A stretch of DNA of 64,000 nt from a virus (taxonomy: Duplodnaviria; Caudoviricetes): positions 1 through 64,000 of the IMG/VR virus record IMGVR_UViG_3300017909_001210, one strand, 5' to 3'. Of the stretch, positions 18,188 to 35,252 are shown in pieces. How positions within the stretch are numbered: the first letter of the stretch is position 1; the number at the start of each line of letters is the position of its first letter. The notes below the pieces were generated by a model. The model saw only the letters and a program-made list of their open reading frames with translations. It made no database searches and was not told where the DNA came from. The position numbers and the translations under genes were made by a program.

Positions 18188-18399
18188 TGAAAGATATTGA
18201 GTATGTAAAAGTTGAAGGTCACTCACACTTAGTGAGGGACGATAGTTCTCAAGGAATTGTTAATACGGATATAGAACAATATAAATTAACAATGAAACGT
18301 AGAGAAATCATGAGGAATACTCGTGAGGAGATAAATAAATTAAAGGGTGACATGGACGAGATTAAATCTATGTTAACACAACTTATAGAGAAAGTATAA
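18187..18399 (+). CDS. Small conserved hypothetical protein (coiled-coil C-terminus)
   Basis: 70 aa, translationally coupled on both sides; VKVEGH..LVRD..S..IVN pattern usual after the VrlC-like gene. Confidence 0.7.
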   Translation: MKDIEYVKVEGHSHLVRDDSSQGIVNTDIEQYKLTMKRREIMRNTREEINKLKGDMDEIKSMLTQLIEKV

Positions 18400-19616
18400 T
18401 GGCAAAAACAGTAGACCAATTTTCAACGATAGAAAATTTTAGAACCAAGTATAACGAACTCGCAGTTGACGTTGGTGATAAGAGTGGCCTTAGAACAGAA
18501 GAAACTGGAAACCTTGTCGATGCACTTAATAGTTTAGAAGATAAATCATTCTTCTTTCAAGAGTTTAAGTATAGTGCAACTAGTGGTCAAACTGTATTCT
18601 CAGGTAATGATTCTGCAAACAATTCACTTGTTTTTAGAAGTGAAAGAATCCAAGTATTTAAAAACTCAGACCATTTACTTTTAGGAACAGATTACTCAAT
18701 CGGTGGTGTAGACGGAAACAAACATACAGAAATTACACTTAACGTAGGTGCAACGACTGGTGACGTTATCACTATCTATGCATATACAGGTTCATACTTA
18801 GGAAGTGCAATTGGTGCTGGTGGTGGAACAGACGGACAGTTTACTGAAACAGCTGCAAATACTATTTACAATAAAAACTCAAATGGTATAATATTAAATG
18901 GTTCTTCAACTGGAAGAACAACTACACTTACAACAAGTGCAAAAATAGAATTTGATTCTAATAATACAGGTATCTATTCACAAGAAGATATTACACTTGC
19001 AACTGGTAAGAGTGTCACTGCAGACTCCTTTGTGGGTGATTTAACTGGAACTGTCACTGGTAATGTCACTGGAAATGTCACTGGAAATATTTCAGGTAGT
19101 TCAGGAACAGTCACAAGTATATCTTCACATTCTGCAAGTGGATTATCAGACATTAATTATACCACAACACCTACAAATGGTCAAATCCTTACATGGGATA
19201 ATGCAAACGGATATTGGGAACCAGCAGATAATCAATCTCTTTCTACATTAAGTGGTGATACAGATGACCTTACAGAAGGAACAACAAATCTGTTTTCAAC
19301 TACAGAAAGAATTCAAGATGCAGCCGCAACAATGATTACAAGTGCAACACATAGTAATATATCAGTATCATATGATGATGCCTTAGGAACACTTTCATTT
19401 ACTGCTGGTGCAACATATACAGACTCAGACGCAAGAAGTGCGATTGCTGGTGGTGACGGACTTGCATATAATTCTTCAACAGGAAATATGAGTGTTAACA
19501 CTGCAAAAGGAATCGAAATAAATAATGATACAGTTGAATTAGACTATGAAACGACTTCTACTGCCCCAAGTTCTGCTTCGGGAACTGTAGAAGGTCATTT
19601 ATGGTTTGTGATATGA
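18399..19616 (+). CDS. Fibre/connector-type virion protein
   Basis: 405 aa, T/S/G-rich, VTGN repeats, C-terminal AP...GHLWF module. Confidence 0.65.
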   Translation: MAKTVDQFSTIENFRTKYNELAVDVGDKSGLRTEETGNLVDALNSLEDKSFFFQEFKYSATSGQTVFSGNDSANNSLVFRSERIQVFKNSDHLLLGTDYSIGGVDGNKHTEITLNVGATTGDVITIYAYTGSYLGSAIGAGGGTDGQFTETAANTIYNKNSNGIILNGSSTGRTTTLTTSAKIEFDSNNTGIYSQEDITLATGKSVTADSFVGDLTGTVTGNVTGNVTGNISGSSGTVTSISSHSASGLSDINYTTTPTNGQILTWDNANGYWEPADNQSLSTLSGDTDDLTEGTTNLFSTTERIQDAAATMITSATHSNISVSYDDALGTLSFTAGATYTDSDARSAIAGGDGLAYNSSTGNMSVNTAKGIEINNDTVELDYETTSTAPSSASGTVEGHLWFVI

Positions 19617-19617
19617 T

Positions 19618-20958
19618 ATGTCAGACGAAATTTACATTAATATAGGAAGTTCTTTCCAACAACCTTACCAAGGTCAAACACCTACCCAAGCTCAGTCTGC
19701 AGAGGTTAAACAGATTGTAAAGAGAACACCTGCTAATACTCAAACACTTTATCAGAGTCCAAGTCGGACTCCTTCAACATATAGAAATCCAGTAAATAGA
19801 CAAACAAATATAGATGCACAAGAGAGTAATCCGTTTACTTTTAATGCACAACAACAGATAGATTATCAAAGTCCTTTTAGAAGTCCTTCGATAACACAAG
19901 TAATTGCACAACAACCAAGTCCTTATATTGCACAAAGTGAATATCAAAATCCTTTTACTTTTCAACAAGACGTTCAGAATACTGTTGAGGTTCAAAGTGG
20001 ATATCAAGCTCAACAACCATATCAAACTCAATTATCTGTTCAACAGGTAGGGCCTGTTTCCGTGCGAACTTTGCAAATGTATAGATACCCTTATGCATAT
20101 TGGTATCAATGGAATGATGCTAAGTTTAAAGAACCCATCGACTCTGAAATTATAATGTATCAAGGGCCTCGAGGTGATTTAGATGATACCATGGGTTATG
20201 CCCAAGCAAGAGGTATTTCACAAAACCCAGTAATTCTGCAAGGTGTAATAACTCGATATCCTCAACCAGTTCCAGTAAGTGGTCAGGTGCCAAGTCCAAC
20301 CCCTATCTCATATCAATATTTGGGACAACCCATTCAGTATCAGTATATCACACAGGTTGCTGGGACACCATATACCATTCAAAGGGAGGTTTATCAGTCA
20401 ACAAATCCAGTGCGAACTCAAACCCCAGCTAGAAGTCGGACTCCTGCTCAACAACCTTTGATTGCGCAATCACCTTCTACAACTCCAGTTCCAGCAAGAC
20501 AACCTTTAAGACAACCATTGGAACTTCAACAACAGATAACTATTCAAGCAGACCAAGACGTTCAAAACCAAGTTAGAGCTCCTGCTAGACAACCAAGTCC
20601 ATATATTGCACAGGCACAACAACAAAGTCCGTATATTGCACAACAACCTTCTACATATAGAAACCCAGTGAATAAACAGACTAATACTCAGAATGATACA
20701 AGACAACCTAATATCTATCAGGTTCCTTATCAAGTTCCGTATATACATAGGTCACCTTACATAACTCAAACACCTTATTCTACAAGTAGAACTGTCGGCC
20801 CCATTGCAAAGGTGAAAGCAATTTATCTAAATAAAGACGGACAAAATATTGAAAAAATAGACCAAGTTTACGTAAATAACTCAGGAACAATTGAGAAAAT
20901 TCACCAAACTGTTCCTGCCGCAAGATTTAGTAAGAATCCAAGTAATACTCAACAATAA
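19618..20958 (+). CDS. Gln/Pro/Tyr-rich low-complexity repeat protein, probably virion-associated
   Basis: 446 aa with recurring QQPSPYIAQ and PSTYRNPVN.QTN; C-terminal DQVYVN segment. Confidence 0.7.
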   Translation: MSDEIYINIGSSFQQPYQGQTPTQAQSAEVKQIVKRTPANTQTLYQSPSRTPSTYRNPVNRQTNIDAQESNPFTFNAQQQIDYQSPFRSPSITQVIAQQPSPYIAQSEYQNPFTFQQDVQNTVEVQSGYQAQQPYQTQLSVQQVGPVSVRTLQMYRYPYAYWYQWNDAKFKEPIDSEIIMYQGPRGDLDDTMGYAQARGISQNPVILQGVITRYPQPVPVSGQVPSPTPISYQYLGQPIQYQYITQVAGTPYTIQREVYQSTNPVRTQTPARSRTPAQQPLIAQSPSTTPVPARQPLRQPLELQQQITIQADQDVQNQVRAPARQPSPYIAQAQQQSPYIAQQPSTYRNPVNKQTNTQNDTRQPNIYQVPYQVPYIHRSPYITQTPYSTSRTVGPIAKVKAIYLNKDGQNIEKIDQVYVNNSGTIEKIHQTVPAARFSKNPSNTQQ

Positions 20959-20976
20959 TTTCGTATAAATAGTTAT

Positions 20977-21309
20977 ATGGCTATTATTGCAAATATCTTT
21001 ATCGACCAAGGAACAGACTTCAGTATCACTGTAGACGTGACTGATTCAACAGGTGACGCACTCAATATGAGTGGTTATTCTGCAAGTGCTCAGATACGTA
21101 AGACCTACAGTTCTTCTACTGCAAGTGCAACCTTTGGAACTTCAATTGCAGAAGCAACAGGTCAAGTGACATTAACACTTGACGATACACAAACTACTGC
21201 ATTAGAAGCGGGAAGATATGTATACGATATGAACATCACCAGTGGTGGTGGTCAAACAACAAGAGTAGTAGAGGGACAAGCAATTGTCACTCCAGGCGTC
21301 ACGAGGTAA
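20977..21309 (+). CDS. Small structural protein (BppU-N-like)
   Basis: 110 aa, IDQGTDF...A.AQIRK....GRYVYD..I...RVVEGQA.VTPGVT; late promoter at 20964-20971. Confidence 0.7.
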   Translation: MAIIANIFIDQGTDFSITVDVTDSTGDALNMSGYSASAQIRKTYSSSTASATFGTSIAEATGQVTLTLDDTQTTALEAGRYVYDMNITSGGGQTTRVVEGQAIVTPGVTR

Positions 21310-25890: not shown

Positions 25891-26151
25891 ATGGCAACAC
25901 AAAATACCTTTGTAATTGAATATGGATTGACTGTAGGAACTACCGAAGTCATATCAAGTGCGGGTAAACTCGCTGCAAGTGCATTATCATTATTAAATAC
26001 TGATTCACTTGCTGAAGGGTCAACCAATCAATACTTTTCAAACAGTCTTGCAAGAGGTGCTATATCACTTGCAAGTGGAGAATCAAATTTAAGTTATAAT
26101 TCAACTTCGGGTGAATTATCATTACCACAAGTAGATGGGGGAACATTTTAA
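25891..26151 (+). CDS. Small structural protein ending in DGGTF
   Basis: 86 aa; N-terminus paralogous to next ORF; late promoter at 25847-25854. Confidence 0.65.
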   Translation: MATQNTFVIEYGLTVGTTEVISSAGKLAASALSLLNTDSLAEGSTNQYFSNSLARGAISLASGESNLSYNSTSGELSLPQVDGGTF

Positions 26152-27737
26152 TGACAGCTAAGAACTTTATAATCAAGAATGGTCTTACAGTCGGGACAAC
26201 AGAGGTTATAGACAGTTCAGGTAGACTTACGGGTTCTGCCATAACTGATTCGATTGACGATAGAGTCAATACCCTCTTGACTGCGGGAACAGGTATAACA
26301 TTAACATATGACGATAGTGCAAACACACTAACAATTGACGGACAAACTGGTGATGTGACTGGAGTCACTGCTGGAACAGGTCTATCAGGTGGTGGTTCAT
26401 CAGGTGACGTTTCACTTGCTATCGACTACAGTGCAACTTGGGGAGGTAATTTAATCCCTGATGGAAACGAAACAAGGGACTTAGGTTCTACAAGTGCAAG
26501 GTGGAATGACTTATACCTTGCTGGTTCAACTATTAACTTAGGTGGAACAGAACTTTCAAAAGACTCAGACGGAAATATTGAGATGTCTGCAAGTGGAACA
26601 TTGAAATCACTTAAAGTTGCAGAAATCGAAATTGGAACAGGAGATGACGTTCTTGTTCTTAAAAGAGATAGTAATGGTAAACTTCAATCAAGAAGTAAGA
26701 ACAAAACTTCAAGAACAGAAACAGCTGCAGATGTAGATTTATCTAATAACGATTCAGATGACCTTTCAGAAGGGTCAAGCAACCTCTATTACACTGATGC
26801 ACGTGTTCAAACATTCTTAGGTGGTGGTTCACTTGCTGGTAATGTCATACCAGCTGCTGATAACACATATGACTTAGGTTCATCTTCAAGAATGTGGAAG
26901 GACGTATATATCGGGCCAGGTTCATTATATGTTAATGGTCAGAAAGTGGTTGAAGATAACTCAGGAACAATCGTTGTTTCTGCAGACGATAACCAAAACG
27001 TTTCTGTTCAAACAGGTGGTTCAGGTGACGTAGAACTTGACCCAACAGGAACAGGTGTTATCCAAATTAAAGGAACACTTCAAATCGAAGACGGACAAAA
27101 CATTACTAACAGTGCTGGAAATGAAATATCTTTCGGAAACAATATAACAGTTGACCAAATTGCATCTAAATCAACAGACACTAACTTAGTATTAAGTGGT
27201 AATGGAACAGGTAATGTCACATTAAATGACAATGTTGCAATTACAGGTGACTTAACAGTTTCAGGAACTACAACGACTGTAAACTCAGAAACTATTTCAC
27301 TTGCAGATAACGTAATTGCATTAAACAGTAATTTCACTTCAGGTTCACCAACAGAAGATTCAGGTATTAGTATCACTAGAGGTGGTTCTTCTGCTAAGAC
27401 ACTTCTTTGGGACGAAACAAATGACAAATGGACTGTAGGTTCAGAAACTTTTGTTGCTGGAACTTTCGAAGGAAACCTAACTGGAAATGTCACTGGAAAT
27501 GTCATTGGAGATGTCACTGGAGACTTAACAGGAACAGCTTCAAGTGCAACCCTTGCTACAAATGCTCAAGGATTGACTGGAACTCCAAATATTTCAGTTG
27601 GAACAATTGCCTCAGGTGCTATTACTATCACCAATGCAACAAACAGTGGTGGAACTGCTAGAAACGTTTACCAATCAACATCAGCTCCTGCTTCAGGTGA
27701 TGGTGCGGTTGGTGATTTGTGGATTCTTTACTCCTAA
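26151..27737 (+). CDS. Tail fibre-like protein
   Basis: 528 aa, T/S/G-rich, GNVIPAADNTYDLGSSSRMW motif, VTGN repeats, C-terminal AP...GDLWI module. Confidence 0.7.
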   Translation: MTAKNFIIKNGLTVGTTEVIDSSGRLTGSAITDSIDDRVNTLLTAGTGITLTYDDSANTLTIDGQTGDVTGVTAGTGLSGGGSSGDVSLAIDYSATWGGNLIPDGNETRDLGSTSARWNDLYLAGSTINLGGTELSKDSDGNIEMSASGTLKSLKVAEIEIGTGDDVLVLKRDSNGKLQSRSKNKTSRTETAADVDLSNNDSDDLSEGSSNLYYTDARVQTFLGGGSLAGNVIPAADNTYDLGSSSRMWKDVYIGPGSLYVNGQKVVEDNSGTIVVSADDNQNVSVQTGGSGDVELDPTGTGVIQIKGTLQIEDGQNITNSAGNEISFGNNITVDQIASKSTDTNLVLSGNGTGNVTLNDNVAITGDLTVSGTTTTVNSETISLADNVIALNSNFTSGSPTEDSGISITRGGSSAKTLLWDETNDKWTVGSETFVAGTFEGNLTGNVTGNVIGDVTGDLTGTASSATLATNAQGLTGTPNISVGTIASGAITITNATNSGGTARNVYQSTSAPASGDGAVGDLWILYS

Positions 27738-27791
27738 TCTAGGGGTTTAGAATCTTTATAAATATGAGAACTTTTAACGGGAAATAACTAA

Positions 27792-28364
27792 ATGGCAATC
27801 GGAATTACACAACAACCTTACATTGCAAGTGCTCAGCAGCCTTTTTCATTCCAAAGTCCGTTTACGTATAGTGCAAGGTATCCTGCTAACGCACAACAAC
27901 CCGTGTCGTATCAGTCACCTTTTACGTATAATGCAAGGTATCCAGCGAATGCTCAACAACCAGTGACATATAGGTCACCATTTACCTATAGAGTTCCATA
28001 TCGTGCAAATGCAAGACAACCATTTACTTACAGAAACCCATTTACATATAGGGTTCCATACCAAGCAAATGCAAGACAACCTTTTACATATAACTTTAGG
28101 TCACCATTCACTTACAGAAACCCAAGTAATGCTAGACAACCTTCTGAGTATCAACATAGAAGTCCGTTTACTTACCAAAATCCAGTGAATGCACAAGAAC
28201 CTAATATAAGAAATGCTCAGACACCATTTACATATAGTAATAGACAACCATTTACATATAGTAATAGACAACCAGCAACATATGCGACTCAAGGAAGAAC
28301 TCCTGAAGCAAGGTGGGACGGAGTAGTATCACAACAGTGGCCTGGGTCACCAATAACAGGATAA
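27792..28364 (+). CDS. Pro/Tyr/Gln-rich tandem-repeat protein
   Basis: 190 aa built from (R/Q)(S/N/Q)PFTY and NA(R/Q)QP units; late promoter at 27757-27764. Confidence 0.75.
   Translation: MAIGITQQPYIASAQQPFSFQSPFTYSARYPANAQQPVSYQSPFTYNARYPANAQQPVTYRSPFTYRVPYRANARQPFTYRNPFTYRVPYQANARQPFTYNFRSPFTYRNPSNARQPSEYQHRSPFTYQNPVNAQEPNIRNAQTPFTYSNRQPFTYSNRQPATYATQGRTPEARWDGVVSQQWPGSPITG
28224..28274 (+). repeat. 24-bp exact tandem repeat (2 copies + 3 nt)
   Basis: CCATTTACATATAGTAATAGACAA x2, encodes PFTYSNRQ. Confidence 0.9.
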
Positions 28365-28372
28365 TATAAGAC

Positions 28373-29593
28373 ATGGCATCAGGAAATCAATCAGTCAAGA
28401 CACCTACAGGTTGGAATGCGACCCAAGGTGCATGGGTTAAAACTGGTTCTTCTACGTGGAGTGCAGTTGACCAAATCTATATCAAAACACCTTCAGGGTG
28501 GAATAATGCTTCGGGTCAAGAACTTACACAAGTTCCATACCCTTATATTGCAAACAGTCAAACACCATATATTGCAAATGGTCAACAACCTTATATTGCA
28601 GATGCAAGACAACCTTCTGAGTATCAACATAGGTCACCATTTACATATAGAAATCCAGTAAATGCTCAAGAACCTAACATTAGGAATGCACAAACACCAT
28701 TTACATATCAGAATCCAGTAAATGCACAACAACCTAATATTAGAGATGCACAAAACCCATTTACATACGAAAACAGATATCCTGCGAATGCTCAGTCACC
28801 AAGTAATGCACAAAACCCATTCACTTATGACGCAAGGTATCCTGCGAATATTCAACAACCAGTAGCATTTAGGTCACCTTTCACATATCGTGTGCCTTAT
28901 ATTGCTAATGCTAGACAACCAGTAGCATTTAGGTCACCTTTCACATATCGTGTGCCTTATATTGCTAATGCTAGACAACCTGTTAGTGGAAGGAATCCAT
29001 TTACATATAACAATAGGGCTGCGGTGTCTTACTTCTATCCTGACCCATCGCCTGGTGGTGGTGGTGGTGGCGGTTGCTTCGTCGCTGGGACACCTATTCT
29101 TATGCATGACGGAACAACAAAACCAATTGAGTCAATCGTATTGGGTGACCAAATTAAAGTTTGGAGTGAGGAAGGTCAAATTGTTAAAGAAGTTGAAAAA
29201 CTTATGTCACCAAGACCTACTAAAGTTGTTAACCTCGTTATTGCAAATGAAAACGGAGATACAGTTGCAGAATTAGGAACAACAAAAGACCACCCATTCA
29301 AACTAGTAGACGGAACATGGGGTGTTGTAGATACTGAATATTGGAAAGAATCTCACCCTCAGTTTGAAAATACTGAACAATTGTATGGTGAAGAATTAAA
29401 TGAAGTCAATCTAAAAGTTGGTGATAAACTTCAATCAGTTTGGGGTTCTGCAGTTCTAAAAGATATTATTGATACTGGTGAAGAAAAAGAAGTATACCAT
29501 ATATTAGAAGTAGGTAATTTCTATACAGACGGAGTTGTCGCACATAACATGGTGAAACAAATCTTCGATCCCATCGACAATGAGAGATTCTAG
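28373..29593 (+). CDS. Pro/Tyr repeat protein with C-terminal Hint (intein-like) domain
   Basis: 406 aa; PFTY repeats, Gly7 linker, CFVAGT (Cys codon 29075), TKDHPF block B, VAHN (ends 29548), then 14 aa tail. Confidence 0.85.
   Translation: MASGNQSVKTPTGWNATQGAWVKTGSSTWSAVDQIYIKTPSGWNNASGQELTQVPYPYIANSQTPYIANGQQPYIADARQPSEYQHRSPFTYRNPVNAQEPNIRNAQTPFTYQNPVNAQQPNIRDAQNPFTYENRYPANAQSPSNAQNPFTYDARYPANIQQPVAFRSPFTYRVPYIANARQPVAFRSPFTYRVPYIANARQPVSGRNPFTYNNRAAVSYFYPDPSPGGGGGGGCFVAGTPILMHDGTTKPIESIVLGDQIKVWSEEGQIVKEVEKLMSPRPTKVVNLVIANENGDTVAELGTTKDHPFKLVDGTWGVVDTEYWKESHPQFENTEQLYGEELNEVNLKVGDKLQSVWGSAVLKDIIDTGEEKEVYHILEVGNFYTDGVVAHNMVKQIFDPIDNERF
28855..28980 (+). repeat. 60-bp exact tandem duplication
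   Basis: 28861-28920 is identical to 28921-28980 (20-aa unit VAFRSPFTYRVPYIANARQP). Confidence 0.95.
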
Positions 29594-29635
29594 AGGTTTA
29601 ATTAAACCTTATTAGAACTTCCCTAAATATATATT

Positions 29636-31189
29636 ATGAAACAACTGAAAACCTTAGAAGAAGTCCGCTCAACTATTCAACCTATAGACTATAAAACTTT
29701 AAGTAGTGCTGATTGGTATAACCTAGGTGCATATCATTTAGGAACTATAGACGATATAAGTGACGTTGATAAAGAGTCAGACGTATATAAAAATTTTAAA
29801 TGGGTGTTTGAAAATATTGCACCACCTACTAAAGTAATTAAATGGGGTGATATTTTAGAACTTCGTAAACAGAAGAAATTTGTTCCCTTCTTTGGTGCCT
29901 CAAACGAATCAGTTCATTATCAAAAATTCTTACCACACGTATGGACTTGTAAAGAAAGACCAAATAAAATTACAGGTCAGATGGATTGTGCAAGGATAGT
30001 TGACGGAGAACCCGAATATGCACAAATCAAAGATTATGTAGAGTTTGAACCTAATACAGAAATCACACCTCAGACTGAAACCTCTCTAAATTCAATGTAT
30101 TATCATAGTGCAAAAGCACATTGGTTAATTCAAAGTATACAAGAAGAAGGTTTGAGACACCCAATTCAAGGAACAACATTTAAAATTGACGATAGATTTG
30201 GTTTTAGAATTCACCCAGGCTCTATAAGGTCAAAAGTATACGAAGAATTAGAAGACCCTACTTTTGAAATTTTTGCAACAGACCCTTGGGACGTATTAGA
30301 TACAGAACCCTTAACGTGTGACGAAGCACTGGAATATTGGACTAAAAAGTTAAACGAGAGAAAAAAAAAAAAAAAAAATACGTCCATAACTTTCGTTAAT
30401 GGTGTTATAGAATATCAACATGATTTAATGGATTTAAGTTTCAGAAAAGAAGTGTATGCATTTAACAAAAGAGTTCACTTACAATCAAAAGGAAAACCTT
30501 TAAACATTTACATAGGTTATGATTCAAACCATGGTGACTTACACGAAGTAAATAAGAAGACAATTCTAAAAACACTACAACCTGGCCGTGGTCACCTTAT
30601 GAAAGAGTGTCATTGGGAACCCGAAATCAAATTCCTTGACATTGCAAAACTTCCCGATTATAATAGAGAGTATGCAAATCAATCAACAGAGTTTACTTAC
30701 AGTAGATTTTTAATCCCCTACTTAGAAAACTATGAAGGGTTTAGTATCTTTATTGATAATGACTTCATATGGAGAAAATCTATTTTATCATTGTTCTATT
30801 ATCTGAATATGGACGATGCAGTTGCATGTATCAAGTATCCACAAATCAAACATGACGAAACTAAATTTGACGGACAAGTAAATATAGATTATCCATGTAA
30901 GTTATGGTCATCATTAATGATATTTAATAATGGACATGAAGACTGTAAGAAGTTAACACCTGAAGTAGTGAACACTTGGACGGGAGCCCAATTACATCAA
31001 TTTGAGTGGACTGATAAGATAAGTTCAATACCTGAAAAGTATATCTTTACTGAAGGTTATGATAATCCTGATGAGAAGTGGGATTACACTGGAATACACT
31101 ACACTAGGGGAGGCCCTTGGATAAAAGGTATGGATTATTCCAACATAAATAATTTAGATATTTGGGTAAAGGCAAAAACCTACTTGTAA
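29636..31189 (+). CDS. Two-domain protein: ParB-like N-terminal region + GT-A glycosyltransferase (CDI-like)
   Basis: IYIGYD, STEFTYSRFLIPYL, FIDNDF (DxD), YPCKLWSSLMIFNNGH, LHQFEW, HYTRGGPW; N-part has LIQSIQEEGLRHPI. Confidence 0.8.
   Translation: MKQLKTLEEVRSTIQPIDYKTLSSADWYNLGAYHLGTIDDISDVDKESDVYKNFKWVFENIAPPTKVIKWGDILELRKQKKFVPFFGASNESVHYQKFLPHVWTCKERPNKITGQMDCARIVDGEPEYAQIKDYVEFEPNTEITPQTETSLNSMYYHSAKAHWLIQSIQEEGLRHPIQGTTFKIDDRFGFRIHPGSIRSKVYEELEDPTFEIFATDPWDVLDTEPLTCDEALEYWTKKLNERKKKKKNTSITFVNGVIEYQHDLMDLSFRKEVYAFNKRVHLQSKGKPLNIYIGYDSNHGDLHEVNKKTILKTLQPGRGHLMKECHWEPEIKFLDIAKLPDYNREYANQSTEFTYSRFLIPYLENYEGFSIFIDNDFIWRKSILSLFYYLNMDDAVACIKYPQIKHDETKFDGQVNIDYPCKLWSSLMIFNNGHEDCKKLTPEVVNTWTGAQLHQFEWTDKISSIPEKYIFTEGYDNPDEKWDYTGIHYTRGGPWIKGMDYSNINNLDIWVKAKTYL
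30361..30378 (+). repeat. A18 homopolymer inside the glycosyltransferase ORF
   Basis: 18 consecutive A encoding R-KKKKK-N between the two domains; frame intact. Confidence 0.9.
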
Positions 31190-31219
31190 TTTTTATAACA
31201 TTGAGGTATAATATAAAGT

Positions 31220-31783
31220 ATGAACGCATTAATTTATACAGAAGACAGTAAACTTATAGTCCGAAAGGAAAATGGTTTACAATATGATTTTGAAAACGTA
31301 GATAGACCTGAATTGGGTTTTGACTTTGACGTATTAGTTTATGACGATGTTGAAGTTAAGATTTTAAAATGGGAAGACGGAAAACAATTTGACGAACAAG
31401 AACATACTGCATTGACAGAAGAAGACAGACTTAGTATTGAAACATATATCAAAAATTCTGAACCACCTTTGGGATATAATTTAAATCAACAATATATCAA
31501 TCAATTGGAACAACTTGTGTTAGATTATCAAACACAATGTTCTGAATTGTATGGAATGTATGATTTATTATATGCAAATGTAGCTGGAAGAGAAGGGTCA
31601 AATCACCCTAGACGTTCTGATGCAAGAAGAGCATTAGAATATTTTGATAACATATGGTTTTGTTTTGAAAATGTGGTTGCAGAAATTCAACAAACAAGAG
31701 AAGATACTTTAAAGAGTTTTGACCACTATGCTGGTGCAATTCCCGACCCTTTAGTGACTCCCGACTCTAGGTCAAATAGGTAA
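31220..31783 (+). CDS. Hypothetical protein
   Basis: 187 aa ORF; sigma70-like TTGTAA-N17-TATAAT (31184-31212) just upstream. Confidence 0.7.
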   Translation: MNALIYTEDSKLIVRKENGLQYDFENVDRPELGFDFDVLVYDDVEVKILKWEDGKQFDEQEHTALTEEDRLSIETYIKNSEPPLGYNLNQQYINQLEQLVLDYQTQCSELYGMYDLLYANVAGREGSNHPRRSDARRALEYFDNIWFCFENVVAEIQQTREDTLKSFDHYAGAIPDPLVTPDSRSNR

Positions 31784-31786
31784 TGT

Positions 31787-32524
31787 ATGGAACTCATTTA
31801 TCATAATGAGTCCTTTAAACTAAAAGACGTAGGATTCCCATTAAAAGATATTCATATTATTGATGATTGGTTGCCTGTGCAATTACACCATTGGGTTAAC
31901 AGGTCAGTTAGTGCTAATAATATTTGGTCAAAAAATAACCAAGTCACTGGAGATAGTCCTACAGGTTTACCTCATCACCAATTTTGGGGTGCAACTATGA
32001 TGAAGGGAACCAATTCGAGTTTGATAGACGTAGGAAATTATCCCGATACAGACCTCGATATTAATCAATATCTAGACACTAAGATATGTGCAAAATGGTT
32101 AGATAGAAAACTACAAACTGATTTTGGTTTTGAATGGGTAAGGTTTCAATACATGGGATTAAATTCACAAACACAAGGTTTACATGGAACAACTCATGCA
32201 GATTGTATGCAAGAAGACGAATGGAATTTATCTTTTTTATATTATACAAATACTATATGGTCAGAACATTGGGGAGGCCCTTTGAGAATCTATGACGAAA
32301 TGCAACAAGGTTTACATGGTCGTGCAAATCATATAAAGAATCACCAAATTGCAGAGATTCCTTTCAAACCAAATAGATTAGTAGTGTTTGACGGAAGAAT
32401 ACCACATGGTGCCGATGCACCCACTCAAGAAGCACGATATATAGATAGGAAGTCAATCGTAATACGAGGTGACGAAATTAGATTAGTAGAAGACGATTAT
32501 TGGTTTAGACAATGCCCACAATAG
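31787..32524 (+). CDS. 2OG-Fe(II) oxygenase
   Basis: HAD (HxD) triad start, WGG.L, PNRLVVFDGRIPHGA, RKSIV basic motif. Confidence 0.85.
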   Translation: MELIYHNESFKLKDVGFPLKDIHIIDDWLPVQLHHWVNRSVSANNIWSKNNQVTGDSPTGLPHHQFWGATMMKGTNSSLIDVGNYPDTDLDINQYLDTKICAKWLDRKLQTDFGFEWVRFQYMGLNSQTQGLHGTTHADCMQEDEWNLSFLYYTNTIWSEHWGGPLRIYDEMQQGLHGRANHIKNHQIAEIPFKPNRLVVFDGRIPHGADAPTQEARYIDRKSIVIRGDEIRLVEDDYWFRQCPQ

Positions 32525-33423
32525 AATTTAGCACATTTAATGAAGATACTCTCAAGGACTCTAAACCAGTTCTTGCAAAATCTGTAAAACCTGAATGGTG
32601 GAATAAAATGAAATTCCGTGAGTATAATCGTGGAATTAAACAAGCAACAATACGTTCATGTCCTGCTATGGACGATTGGTTAAAGAGTGGTTGGTATTTA
32701 TTATCTAATAGAGATATTATTGTGAAGAATGCTAGACTTGATGGTGATACAGATGACCATTGGGTTGCAACACATGAGTTTGACGGAGGAACAGAAATGC
32801 CTTCACCTACACACCCTTCTGCACAAATGGGATATGCATTTCAATATTTACATGATGAAGATGCACCAGTTAAGGGTGCATTTAAAATGAGAAATCCATG
32901 GAACATAAAAACACCGCCTGGTTATTCAACGTTTTACTTAGACCCATTTTTATTTCAAAACAAATATTTTGCAACATGGCAAGGTGTAATAGATACAGAT
33001 ACCTTTAATACAAATTACGATAATGCACAAATTATCTTTTATCCACGTGTAAATCATTCCTTCGTTATACCAAAAGGAACTCCTCTAGTTCAAGTCATAC
33101 CATTTAAAAGAGAGGAATGGCAGTCAACCTACATAACATATGACCACCAATCTTGGTTAGACAATAGAAGTCATATTACAAATAATTCAGGTAATAAAAG
33201 TATGGACGAATTTAATAGACAAATAGATACCTCTCAAACAGCTAGGGATAAAAATGACAAACTAGGTGGTTATAGAATGGGTAAAATGCACAAACAAAAG
33301 GGTAAAAATTTTAATGAAGGAAATCCACCACCTGAATGTCCTATGCATAGTGCTGTTGATGACGCTGCAGATGTGATGTCAGGTTATGAAAAACAATTAG
33401 AGTTAGATTTAGATAATGATTAG
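32512..33423 (+). CDS. Conserved phage protein (DUF6065-like beta protein) of unknown function
   Basis: TIRSCPAMDDWL..G, FK..NPW.IKTPPGYS, GVIDTD, IPKGTPLVQVIPFKRE.W motifs often found beside 2OG oxygenases. Confidence 0.6.
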   Translation: MPTIEFSTFNEDTLKDSKPVLAKSVKPEWWNKMKFREYNRGIKQATIRSCPAMDDWLKSGWYLLSNRDIIVKNARLDGDTDDHWVATHEFDGGTEMPSPTHPSAQMGYAFQYLHDEDAPVKGAFKMRNPWNIKTPPGYSTFYLDPFLFQNKYFATWQGVIDTDTFNTNYDNAQIIFYPRVNHSFVIPKGTPLVQVIPFKREEWQSTYITYDHQSWLDNRSHITNNSGNKSMDEFNRQIDTSQTARDKNDKLGGYRMGKMHKQKGKNFNEGNPPPECPMHSAVDDAADVMSGYEKQLELDLDND

Positions 33424-34114
33424 ATTATTATTTCCATATGTCTGTATCGAAGACAACTTATTAGAGACTGGTCAACTAGAACAAGACTATATTGATTTAC
33501 TTAAAAATGAAATAGACTCTATGAGAAAGACAGACCCAGTAGGAAGAAGAATATCCAATCAATACACTGGTTGGCAATCAAATGACGGGTGTGAGTCAAG
33601 TCCTATCTTTACTAAATTGTTGAGAATTATCAATCATAAGTTTAATACAGAATTACTTAATTATACTGGACATAGTTCTAGTGAAGTTCAGTTAAACATT
33701 TCAAATTCATGGGCAAACATAAATGATAAAGGTGCATGGAACGCTCCACACTTACATAATGGTTGTTGGTATAGTGGTGTATTCTATGTCCATTCAGAAG
33801 GAGATGAAGGGAACTTTGTTGCACTCGATAAAGACCCAAAGGTAGTTTCAGATTTTCCCCATTCACCAAGAGAAAGTCAAACCTTTAGACTTGCACCTAG
33901 AACTGGTCACTTATTTCTTTTTCCAAGTGCATTAATGCATATGGTAGAACCTAACCAAACTGATAAAGATAGATATAGTATATCATTTAATATGAATACT
34001 CGGTATTTAACCAAACAACTCCCCGTAGGTGGTGACCCTAAAGGTTTTCACCCTGATGAATTGTGTTTTGAAGTAGATAATAACGGAAAACTTATACATA
34101 AACTCTCTACATAG
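33416..34114 (+). CDS. 2OG-Fe(II) oxygenase, TIGR02466-like
   Basis: SWANIN..G.WNAPHLH..WYSGVFYV, LFLFPSALMHMVEPN, RYSISFN. Confidence 0.85.
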   Translation: MIRLLFPYVCIEDNLLETGQLEQDYIDLLKNEIDSMRKTDPVGRRISNQYTGWQSNDGCESSPIFTKLLRIINHKFNTELLNYTGHSSSEVQLNISNSWANINDKGAWNAPHLHNGCWYSGVFYVHSEGDEGNFVALDKDPKVVSDFPHSPRESQTFRLAPRTGHLFLFPSALMHMVEPNQTDKDRYSISFNMNTRYLTKQLPVGGDPKGFHPDELCFEVDNNGKLIHKLST

Positions 34115-34139
34115 TCATTACGATTTCATAAATAATCGT

Positions 34140-34400
34140 ATGGAAATTGTAATAGACGCTCATATTATATGGAATGTTATCTTAACATTTATACTAATGC
34201 CTGTAGGTTTTTTAGTTAGAAACATTCTATCAGAACAAAAAAGACTTGATATACTAGTCAACAAAACACGTGAAGAAATTGCACGTGATTACGCAACTAG
34301 AGAACAAATCGAAGCAGATTTCCAAAGAATTATGGATTCAATTGAAAGATTATCAGAAAAATTAGATAGAATCCAATCTAAAACTTATTTCCAAGATTAA
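34140..34400 (+). CDS. Small membrane protein with coiled coil
   Basis: 86 aa; one hydrophobic helix (IIWNVILTFILMPVGFLV) then heptad-rich tail; CATAAATA at 34127-34134. Confidence 0.6.
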   Translation: MEIVIDAHIIWNVILTFILMPVGFLVRNILSEQKRLDILVNKTREEIARDYATREQIEADFQRIMDSIERLSEKLDRIQSKTYFQD

Positions 34401-34436
34401 AATTACTATAAATAGTAATAAACAGGATTTATTACT

Positions 34437-35252
34437 ATGTCAGAACCGAATTCAAAAGCAGCCTTAAAAGAATATATCAAGAGAAAACTTGGAGCTCCAG
34501 TTCTAGAAATTAACGTGGACGATGACCAGTTTGACGATAGAATCGATGAGGCACTACAATATTTCAGAGAATTCCATTACGATGGTTCTATTAAGACATT
34601 TTTAAAACACCAAATCACTCAAGAAGAGATTGATTCATTCAAAACGAATGAAACTCATAATGCAGCGACAACTGGAACACATGCAATCTCAGGACAAACT
34701 TACGGAGAGGGTCAAAACTACATTACACTACCCGAACACGTGTTAAGTGTAATCAATATTTTCCCTTTCAATTCAGGTCAAACTTCAAGTATGTTTGATA
34801 TCCAGTATCAATTAAGATTGAATGATTTATATGATTTAACTTCAACAAGTGTTTTATACTATTCACAAGTTCAATCACACTTGTCACTTTTAAACGATAT
34901 CCTAGTGGGTCAGATACCTATTAGATACAATATGCATTCTAACAGACTTTACATGGACTACAGTGCAAGTAAATTAAGTGCTGGTGAGTATATCATTATT
35001 GAATGTTATAGAAAATTAGACCCAACAGACATGACTGATATCTATAATGATATGTGGTTGAAAAAGTATTCAACTGCATTAGTGAAGTATCAATGGGGAG
35101 AGAACCTCTCTAAATTCCAAGGAGTTGAGTTGCCTGGTGGTATAACACTAGACGGAGCTCAAATGAAAACAGAAGCACAAGAAGAGATAACTAAATTAGA
35201 AGAAGAATCCCGACTGAATTTCGAAATGCCAGTCATGGATATGATGGGGTAA
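34437..35252 (+). CDS. gp13: Neck protein gp13
   Basis: LKEYIKRKLGAPVLEINVDDDQ..DRIDEALQYF..FHYDG; QWGENLSKF.GV.LPGG. Confidence 0.93.
   Translation: MSEPNSKAALKEYIKRKLGAPVLEINVDDDQFDDRIDEALQYFREFHYDGSIKTFLKHQITQEEIDSFKTNETHNAATTGTHAISGQTYGEGQNYITLPEHVLSVINIFPFNSGQTSSMFDIQYQLRLNDLYDLTSTSVLYYSQVQSHLSLLNDILVGQIPIRYNMHSNRLYMDYSASKLSAGEYIIIECYRKLDPTDMTDIYNDMWLKKYSTALVKYQWGENLSKFQGVELPGGITLDGAQMKTEAQEEITKLEEESRLNFEMPVMDMMG

Follow-up and report, generated by a model that had tools for sequence, protein, structure and literature searches.

Why does a T4-like phage carry a run of enzyme genes directly behind genes for proline- and tyrosine-rich repeat proteins, in the interval between a fibre and the neck? 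The question is raised by a block of genes in a 64,000-nt stretch of viral DNA (IMG/VR record IMGVR_UViG_3300017909_001210, positions 1 to 64,000; hereafter, the window), one section of a T4-like myophage contig that is 79.6 kb long and has a GC content of ~35%. Its large terminase (TerL) is 55% identical to that of phage C48C1 and ~45% identical to those of cyanomyophages. Eight co-oriented genes on the + strand lie between a fibre gene (26151-27737) and a gp13-like neck gene (34437-35252), with junctions that are tight or, as for the ox245, u303, and ox232 genes, overlapping. The best single reading of this arrangement, which we advance tentatively, is that the enzymes act on the repeat proteins, a link that we infer from adjacency and timing; the block would then be a lineage-specific late-gene module of an uncultured clade of marine T4-like phages, with a structural part and an enzymatic part. 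A first-pass annotation, made from the sequence alone, had described seven contiguous, co-oriented open reading frames inserted between fibre and neck genes and so placed among late virion genes; all seven are present at 27792-34114 and the flanks are indeed the fibre gene and gp13, but an eighth gene, u86 (34140-34400), was absent from its list. The genes in question are as follows:

26151-27737, + strand: fibre gene (528 aa), matching fibre and structural PHROGs.
27792-28364, + strand: repA, a 190-aa Pro/Gln/Tyr repeat protein with [R/Q]xP[F/Y]TY motifs.
28373-29593, + strand: repB (406 aa), consisting of an N-domain (aa 1-52; 28373-28528), repeats, a run of seven glycines (29054-29074), a Hint domain (aa 235-392; 29075-29548), and a 14-aa tail.
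29636-31189, + strand: GT517, a two-domain transferase (N-domain, ~aa 1-270, phage-specific; C-domain, ~aa 289-510, GT8-like).
31220-31783, + strand: u187, a 187-aa protein without a Pfam or PHROG family.
31787-32524, + strand: ox245, a 2-oxoglutarate (2OG)-Fe(II) oxygenase of the prolyl-4-hydroxylase (P4H)/PHD type (PF13640).
32512-33423, + strand: u303, a DUF6065-like protein with a predicted dUTPase-superfamily fold, overlapping the genes on both sides (ox245 and ox232).
33416-34114, + strand: ox232, a TIGR02466/2OG-FeII_Oxy_5 (PF13759) oxygenase.
34140-34400, + strand: u86, a small conserved 86-aa protein with a hydrophobic N-terminus, between ox232 and gp13.
34437-35252, + strand: gp13-like neck gene (phrog_211, 3e-48), directly downstream of the block.

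The candidate substrates are the two PFTY repeat proteins, one of them with a Hint domain, that the first-pass annotation had picked out, and repA and repB confirm that description. Across 189 unique orthologues, 3603 motif instances share the core [R/Q]-x-P-[F/Y]-T-Y, in which Pro is fixed and Thr and Tyr occupy their positions in 75% and 92% of instances, respectively. The repeats are rich in Pro, Gln, Tyr, Thr, Ala, Asn, and Arg, contain nearly no acidic residues, Lys, Leu, Cys, or Trp, and have a Gly content of 3.9% (Pro makes up 13% of the repeat proteins). Array length varies among orthologues (190 to 680 aa, with 9 to 35 motifs), and Tandem Repeats Finder reports 60-nt and 24-nt arrays in the repeat genes. 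Chance does not account for these repeats. The arrays hold to a strict register of two residues: of 2789 motif spacings, 2732 are even, and, in repA, 23 of 23 Pro residues fall at even positions and 32 of 32 Tyr or Phe residues at odd positions. Two faces result from this register, one carrying Pro, Thr, and polar residues and the other Tyr, Phe, and Ile. Because of this periodicity, the arrays fit a long, amphipathic beta-type structure, such as an extended appendage; a disordered linker would not look so. A 35-aa block common to repA and repB is identical at 34 of 35 residues despite 13 synonymous codon differences and, since the peptide is kept while the codons change, the repeat sequence is, on the evidence of its codons, under strong purifying selection at the protein level.

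Conservation also marks the ends at which such an appendage might be attached. No part of the region is better conserved than the N-domain of repB (~50 aa; mean column identity, 77%), and the upstream fibre ends in ~30 residues (...NSGGTARNVYQSTSAP...GAVGDLWILYS; 27642-27737) that are nearly invariant in 53 distinct fibres of 353 to 963 aa. That both are conserved far above the surrounding protein suggests a docking pair; a complex prediction with three copies each of the fibre C-terminus and the repB N-domain scored 0.17 against a mark of 0.32, which weighs neither way. The fibre homologue of C48C1 has no GDLWILYS-type end, the motif occurs nowhere in the C48C1 genome, and the repeat genes are also missing there.

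Repeat proteins of this kind are not confined to the block. A third one, resembling repA and repB, is encoded at 19618-20958, after another fibre and 8 kb upstream. Positions 18399-21309 form a second module of like design: a fibre whose C-terminus reads GHLWFVI is followed by a Gln/Pro/Tyr-rich protein of 446 aa, which has motifs in common and a small, conserved domain at its C-terminus, and then by a 110-aa protein with a match to a PHROG for L-shaped tail fibre assembly (8e-24).

Turning to the enzymes, ox245 scores above the PF13640 cut-off (37.1 bits versus 27), and its HxD...H iron triad (H137, D139, and H207), together with R221 and R227, is invariant in 25 orthologues. Searched against solved structures, its profile returned 40 matches (E values of 7e-5 to 0.1), all of the P4H/PHD type except for one uncharacterised chain; those with names include 6t8m (7e-5, deposited as prolyl 4-hydroxylase subunit alpha), HIF prolyl hydroxylase, EGLN1, and Tpa1. 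By sequence and profile, ox245 is a P4H/PHD-type 2OG-Fe(II) oxygenase and a putative peptidyl-proline hydroxylase, which upholds the earlier call of a 2OG-Fe(II) oxygenase and gives it a type. The label “DNA endonuclease V,” which attaches to ox245 through phrog_274, was set aside as a naming artefact. The second oxygenase, ox232, had been described as TIGR02466-like and exceeds the curated cut-off of that family (92.6 bits versus 62.5); it also matches PF13759 (1.5e-20), and its nearest structures, 3bvc and 2rg4, are both uncharacterised.

The glycosyltransferase of the first-pass annotation holds good for the GT8-like C-domain of GT517, but the annotation was silent on the fusion of this domain to an N-domain found only in phages. 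The window copy has no match to the GT8 Pfam family (PF01501), 11 of 25 orthologues do match (best E value, 3.7e-5), and the DxD motif is intact (D374 and D376, within FIDNDF, are invariant in all 25). Annotated phage relatives are 25 to 37% identical, and the GT517 profile has no match among solved structures at an E value of ≤1. The fold predicted for the N-domain (model pLDDT, 94) has top Foldseek matches that are all ParB, KorB, Noc, or sulfiredoxin (Srx) and all weak (E values of 0.06 to 0.3 over 60 to 120 residues), with nothing above Z 4 in VIA-align; a ParB/Srx-like core is possible on this model. The N-domain family comprises 71 clusters, mostly two-domain proteins of 500 to 540 aa (shorter ones may be fragments), and has no distant relatives: among 185,579 prokaryote genomes, it is confined to three phage-like metagenome-assembled contigs, and the most divergent transferase (P0068), used as a seed, led to no viral loci. 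Its neighbour u187, described earlier as a 187-aa protein of unknown family, is present and indeed matches no Pfam or PHROG family; none of its 208 metagenome clusters has a Pfam domain, its profile found no relative among solved structures, and no homologue was found in cultured phages. Weak atlas leads (0.83 to 0.87 to Caudo_TAP_N, XkdW, and DUF4376) hint at a fibre-assembly helper.

One peculiarity of GT517 belongs to this genome alone. An A18 tract at 30361-30378, the sole homopolymer of ≥10 nt in the 64-kb window, encodes a Lys run in the linker between the two domains, where L001, a relative with 97% identity, has 18 nt of mixed sequence; the tract could be prone to slippage or pose a risk for the assembly.

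Four boxes bear on the timing of expression:

27757-27764, + strand: T4-type late promoter box TATAAATA, 28 nt before repA.
29623-29629, + strand: late-promoter-like box CTAAATA, just before the GT517 start codon.
34127-34134, + strand: box CATAAATA, before u86 and similar to the GT517 box.
34407-34414, + strand: late promoter TATAAATA, before gp13, at the downstream end of the block.

Late boxes of the TATAAATA type are found 15 times in the window, versus 5.6 expected, with none between those of repA and gp13; an exact copy stands ahead of the first repeat gene at 23 of 64 loci, and the gp13 box is present at 62 of 64. CTAAATA is rarer than expected in the window (4 copies versus 13.9), with one copy directly before the transferase, and, at 82 of 86 distinct loci, a TAAATA core falls within the 45 nt that precede the transferase, compared with 0 to 3 of 86 for ox245, u303, ox232, gp14, and gp15. 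Because late-type boxes thus stand before repA, the transferase, and gp13, the enzyme run is probably a late sub-operon expressed alongside the virion genes.

The arrangement extends well beyond the window. Scans of IMG/VR seeded with the repeats (78 loci) and with the transferase (at least 73 new loci) gave ~90 distinct loci in all and, among the loci listed from both scans, every one with enough flank shows the order repeats, GT, u187, ox245, u303, ox232, u86, gp13 (genes inserted between u303 and ox232 at some loci belong to no informative family). The lineage is seen in hundreds of ocean metagenome contigs. In C48C1, the nearest cultured phage, the fibre homologue abuts gp13 and all eight genes are missing genome-wide; in P-TIM40, a structural gene abuts gp13, with no insert. 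These observations fit a single inserted module, present or absent as a whole. Searches of the block itself added little: blastn against cultured phages gave no match, PADLOC gave generic 2OG matches and nothing else, and Rfam found no RNA family within 27-35 kb.

The Hint domain of repB calls for separate treatment. The C-terminus of repB runs from the seven glycines to Cys235, a TKDH block, and a terminal HN followed by Met, with the Hint domain spanning 158 aa. Cys1, TxxH, and HN are invariant in 16 distinct Hint copies from lineages that are 25 to 35% identical (C1, T70, H73, H157, and N158 are invariant in 14 Hint sequences), and scores against Hint models fall below the cut-offs (PF05203, 21.4 versus 32.1; TIGR01445, 20.8 versus 24.5). 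A canonical splicing intein was rejected: the +1 residue is M, F, I, G, or L in 16 of 16 distinct copies and never Cys, Ser, or Thr. Because of this residue and the invariant Cys1, TxxH, and HN, the domain is, as judged from its sequence, a nonsplicing, self-cleaving domain like the bacterial intein-like (BIL) and Hedgehog Hog domains. It is present in 26 of 78 repB-seeded loci, and the repB orthologues without it still have the Gly run and a short tail. Used as a seed, the Hint domain led to many unrelated proteins of phages that likewise end in a Gly run and a Hint cap, and no cassette enzymes were detected near them with profiles built from the clade, which may be blind to remote relatives. 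Since it is sporadic in the clade and caps unrelated proteins without enzymes detected nearby, the Hint domain is an independent module and not part of a tailoring system. The suggestion that substrate, autoprocessing domain, and tailoring enzymes form a unit, in the manner of ribosomally synthesized and post-translationally modified peptides (RiPPs), thus falls; a RiPP-type system was rejected also on the form of the repeat proteins, which are 190 to 680 aa long, with a docking-type N-domain, an optional Hint domain, and no short leader/core precursor. Large proteins ending in a Gly run, a Hint cap, and a short tail occur at loci L166-L198, L186, L190, L194, L209, and L228, and some Hint-capped proteins seem to hold tandem Hint domains (...NILVHNIPPK, then Cys).

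What the module might do can now be set out, with the proviso that we infer every chemical step, the virion location, and the docking. One or two Pro/Gln/Tyr repeat proteins would form an extended beta-type appendage, which the repB N-domain would dock on the GDLWILYS end of the upstream fibre; in some lineages, the C-terminal Hint domain would cleave itself off after the Gly run, in Hedgehog/BIL fashion and without splicing. The prolines of the [R/Q]xP[F/Y]TY motifs would be hydroxylated by ox245, the GT8-like transferase would add a sugar to hydroxyproline, Thr, or Tyr, and ox232 may perform a second hydroxylation. The picture in full (a fibre-tip beta appendage of alternating Pro and aromatic residues, hydroxylated and glycosylated by a dedicated late operon in abundant marine T4-like, possibly SAR11, phages, with the Hint thioester serving for cleavage or covalent attachment in some lineages) is doubtful when taken as a whole.

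Several observations weigh against enzymes that act on the repeats. The repeat motif is unlike the known P4H substrates (X-Pro-Gly, Ser-Pro(n), and LxxLAP), and further observations favour a competing explanation that we consider possible though short of probable: that the two parts are co-located but functionally separate, the repeat proteins, whether or not they bear Hint, being unmodified fibre appendages and the enzymes an accessory island that acts on host glycans, on proteins or small molecules, or on the nucleotide pool. Accessory islands of such enzymes are common in marine T4-like phages, and co-occurrence can be accounted for by the synteny of the whole region. TerL is at least 77.6% identical within the clade, and the region, including the upstream fibre genes, is equally syntenic throughout; since the clade is this tight, the constancy of the block represents about one evolutionary event and is weak evidence, and the argument that constancy proves linkage was rejected. 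Hence, the check that the first-pass annotation had proposed, co-occurrence of repeat genes and enzymes across related genomes, bears out presence or absence of the block as a whole but counts for roughly a single event.

The wider relatives of the enzymes point the same way. Distant homologues of ox245 follow nrdB in cyanophage ACG-2014f, those of ox232 occur in hundreds of cyanophages, and GT8-like homologues lie in a pelagiphage glycan-type cluster; no repeat protein is among the annotated neighbours of distant ox245, ox232, u303, and GT8 relatives, neighbours that were not screened for PFTY-type repeats. As to whether the enzymes occur independently of the repeats, which the first-pass annotation took as grounds for refutation, the two are never apart among the listed clade loci with enough flank, but the distant relatives reside in accessory or nucleotide-metabolism islands. 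In pelagimyophages and cyanomyophages, the interval between baseplate/fibre genes and the gp13/gp14 neck genes has been described as a hypervariable “host recognition cluster” rich in GT8 genes, which are read as modifiers of host lipopolysaccharide (LPS) (PMC7029224). Within the transferase coding region, moreover, a perfect sigma-70-type promoter (TTGACA-17-TATAAT) lies at 30636-30664; it scores 12/12 in 49 of 89 distinct orthologous genes and ≥10/12 in 78 of 89, synonymous entropy is 0.65 to 0.75 there versus a median of 0.97, and one subclade encodes the same Leu-Asp via other codons and has lost it. Such an internal promoter could drive early expression of the downstream enzymes.

Further counterevidence comes from u303, which sits in the middle of the enzyme run. 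The DUF6065 label given to it by the first-pass annotation is weak (1 of 25 members, E value of 0.026), whereas two aligners assign its predicted model (pLDDT of only 67) to the dUTPase fold. VIA-align gives Z 9.2, with dUTPases or members of the dCTP deaminase family filling the top 22 rows and the first unrelated row at Z 3.5; Foldseek gives 32 matches at E ≤ 1e-3 (best, 9e-5), all dUTPases among the matches listed. Motif 3 (GxIDxD) and the Gln of motif 4 align with those of dUTPases and are invariant, an RS dipeptide could be motif 2, and motifs 1 and 5 are not recognised. On this model, u303 is a member of the dUTPase superfamily in fold, and it probably does not belong to the chemistry proposed for the repeats. 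Its distant relatives adjoin thymidylate synthase and DNA polymerase in haloviruses and follow ribonucleotide reductase in cyanophage S-RIM4. In cyanophage P-TIM40 (L081 2771-6705), a distant relative stands after two tryptophan-halogenase genes and before a run of hypothetical genes of ~200 to 240 aa. DUF6065-like proteins more generally appear to be divergent members of the dUTPase superfamily (window 32512-33423, L082 6893-7765, and L080 6001-6795).

Set against functional separation are four features of the block. Late-type boxes precede the transferase sub-operon (82 of 86 loci), and late timing is ill suited to a change of the host surface that excludes rival phages; the block is constant in its clade, unlike truly hyperplastic islands; the transferase N-domain and u187 are known from this cassette only; and repeats and enzymes are jointly missing from C48C1. 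Action of the enzymes on the repeat proteins remains, tentatively, our preferred reading.

Much less probable is a cassette for modifying DNA or nucleotides on the T4 or base-J model, in which u303 would shape the dNTP pool, the oxygenases hydroxylate a base, and the transferase, with a ParB/Srx-like domain that binds DNA or NTPs, glycosylate it before packaging. The dUTPase fold and motifs of u303 would suit this role, as would its standing as the sole dUTPase-like gene found in three clade genomes that are 80 to 83% complete (the Pfam dUTPase model weakly matches a 304-aa frame at the expected u303 position in them and nothing else). The overlap of the ox245, u303, and ox232 genes and the weak, one-sided Foldseek matches of the GT517 N-domain to ParB, KorB, Noc, and sulfiredoxin also lean this way, and late expression is compatible with modification after replication, for which Mu Mom is an example. 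However, ox245 groups with protein prolyl hydroxylases, neither oxygenase matches the TET/JBP or AlkB Pfam families, and relatives of ox232 are common in cyanophages, whose DNA is not known to be hypermodified. The resemblance to ParB/Srx does not reach significance and has no counterpart in VIA-align; ThyX was looked for without success in the three most complete genomes of the clade (no search for a ThyA-type hydroxymethylase was made); and the genes are located inside a block of virion genes.

It is similarly improbable that the enzymes modify the fibre or another virion protein, or that the repeat proteins are assembly scaffolds outside the mature particle: the upstream fibres have a high content of Thr, Ser, and Asn, the weak leads for u187 hint at fibre assembly, and phage transferases are known to glycosylate virion proteins (mycobacteriophage capsid and tail-tube proteins), but a P4H-type enzyme suits repeat proteins with 13% Pro better than Pro-poor fibres.

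The stakes of the question are set by the marine T4-like phages at large, in which genes for 2OG-Fe(II) oxygenases abound; ever since the first cyanophage genomes, the substrates of these enzymes have gone unexplained. The block offers a candidate pair within reach of bench tests, namely, [R/Q]xP[F/Y]TY peptides (e.g., RSPFTYRNPVNAQ and QQPVSYQSPFTY) together with ox245, ox232, and GT517. Were the enzymes to act on the repeats, the 2OG-Fe(II) oxygenases of marine phages would gain their first natural substrate, the range of viruses that encode hydroxylation and glycosylation for their structural proteins would widen from giant viruses and mycobacteriophages to oceanic myophages, and there would be a bearing on host recognition. 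Two results are independent of the enzyme-substrate link: the dUTPase fold of DUF6065-like proteins, as predicted here for u303, and the Gly run with a Hint cap as a widespread ending of phage structural proteins.

Viral precedents for the proposed chemistry come from giant viruses of eukaryotes. Chlorovirus PBCV-1 encodes a prolyl 4-hydroxylase along with its own Pro-rich repeat proteins, and mimivirus L230 is a collagen hydroxylase/glucosyltransferase. As in those viruses, a virus-encoded P4H-type oxygenase (in mimivirus, with a coupled transferase) accompanies Pro-rich repeat proteins, which are presumed or shown to be the substrates there; unlike them, the present case concerns a T4-like phage known from its genes alone, with [R/Q]xP[F/Y]TY in place of (PAPK)n or collagen Gly-X-Y. 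The repeats likewise differ from the hydroxyproline glycoproteins of the collagen and extensin type in having neither X-Pro-Gly triplets nor Ser-Pro(n) blocks, consistent with their low Gly content. A cellular parallel is the Skp1 pathway, in which the prolyl hydroxylase PhyA forms a hydroxyproline that is then elaborated by glycosyltransferases, one of them of the GT8 type; GT8 enzymes can glycosylate protein-linked sugars or Tyr, as does glycogenin, a GT8 enzyme that O-glucosylates Tyr. The block shares with the Skp1 pathway a PHD/P4H-type hydroxylase (6t8m being the best solved match of ox245), followed in Skp1 by GT-A transferases acting on protein. In contrast with the single Pro of a folded cytoplasmic protein, the phage would offer dozens of repeat motifs, and its transferase is remotely GT8-like with a novel N-domain.

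The remaining components can be placed in the same manner. Like BIL and Hedgehog Hog domains, the repB Hint domain has Cys1 after Gly, TxxH, a terminal HN, no +1 nucleophile, and no endonuclease in its ~158 aa; unlike them, it scores below the Pfam and NCBIfam cut-offs and caps a fibre-associated repeat protein of a phage. The predicted fold of u303, with its GxIDxD and Q motifs, resembles those of trimeric dUTPases (1dun, 3h6x, 3ecy, and chlorella virus 3c3i), from which u303 differs in its length of 303 aa, long inserts, Cys-Pro-containing tail, and unrecognisable motifs 1 and 5. Finally, the block has the same genome position as the “host recognition cluster” of pelagimyophages and cyanomyophages (PMC7029224), with a GT8-like gene among fibre genes and a GC content of ~34 to 35%; it departs from that cluster in being invariant in its clade, in carrying late-promoter boxes, and in being paired with repeat proteins.

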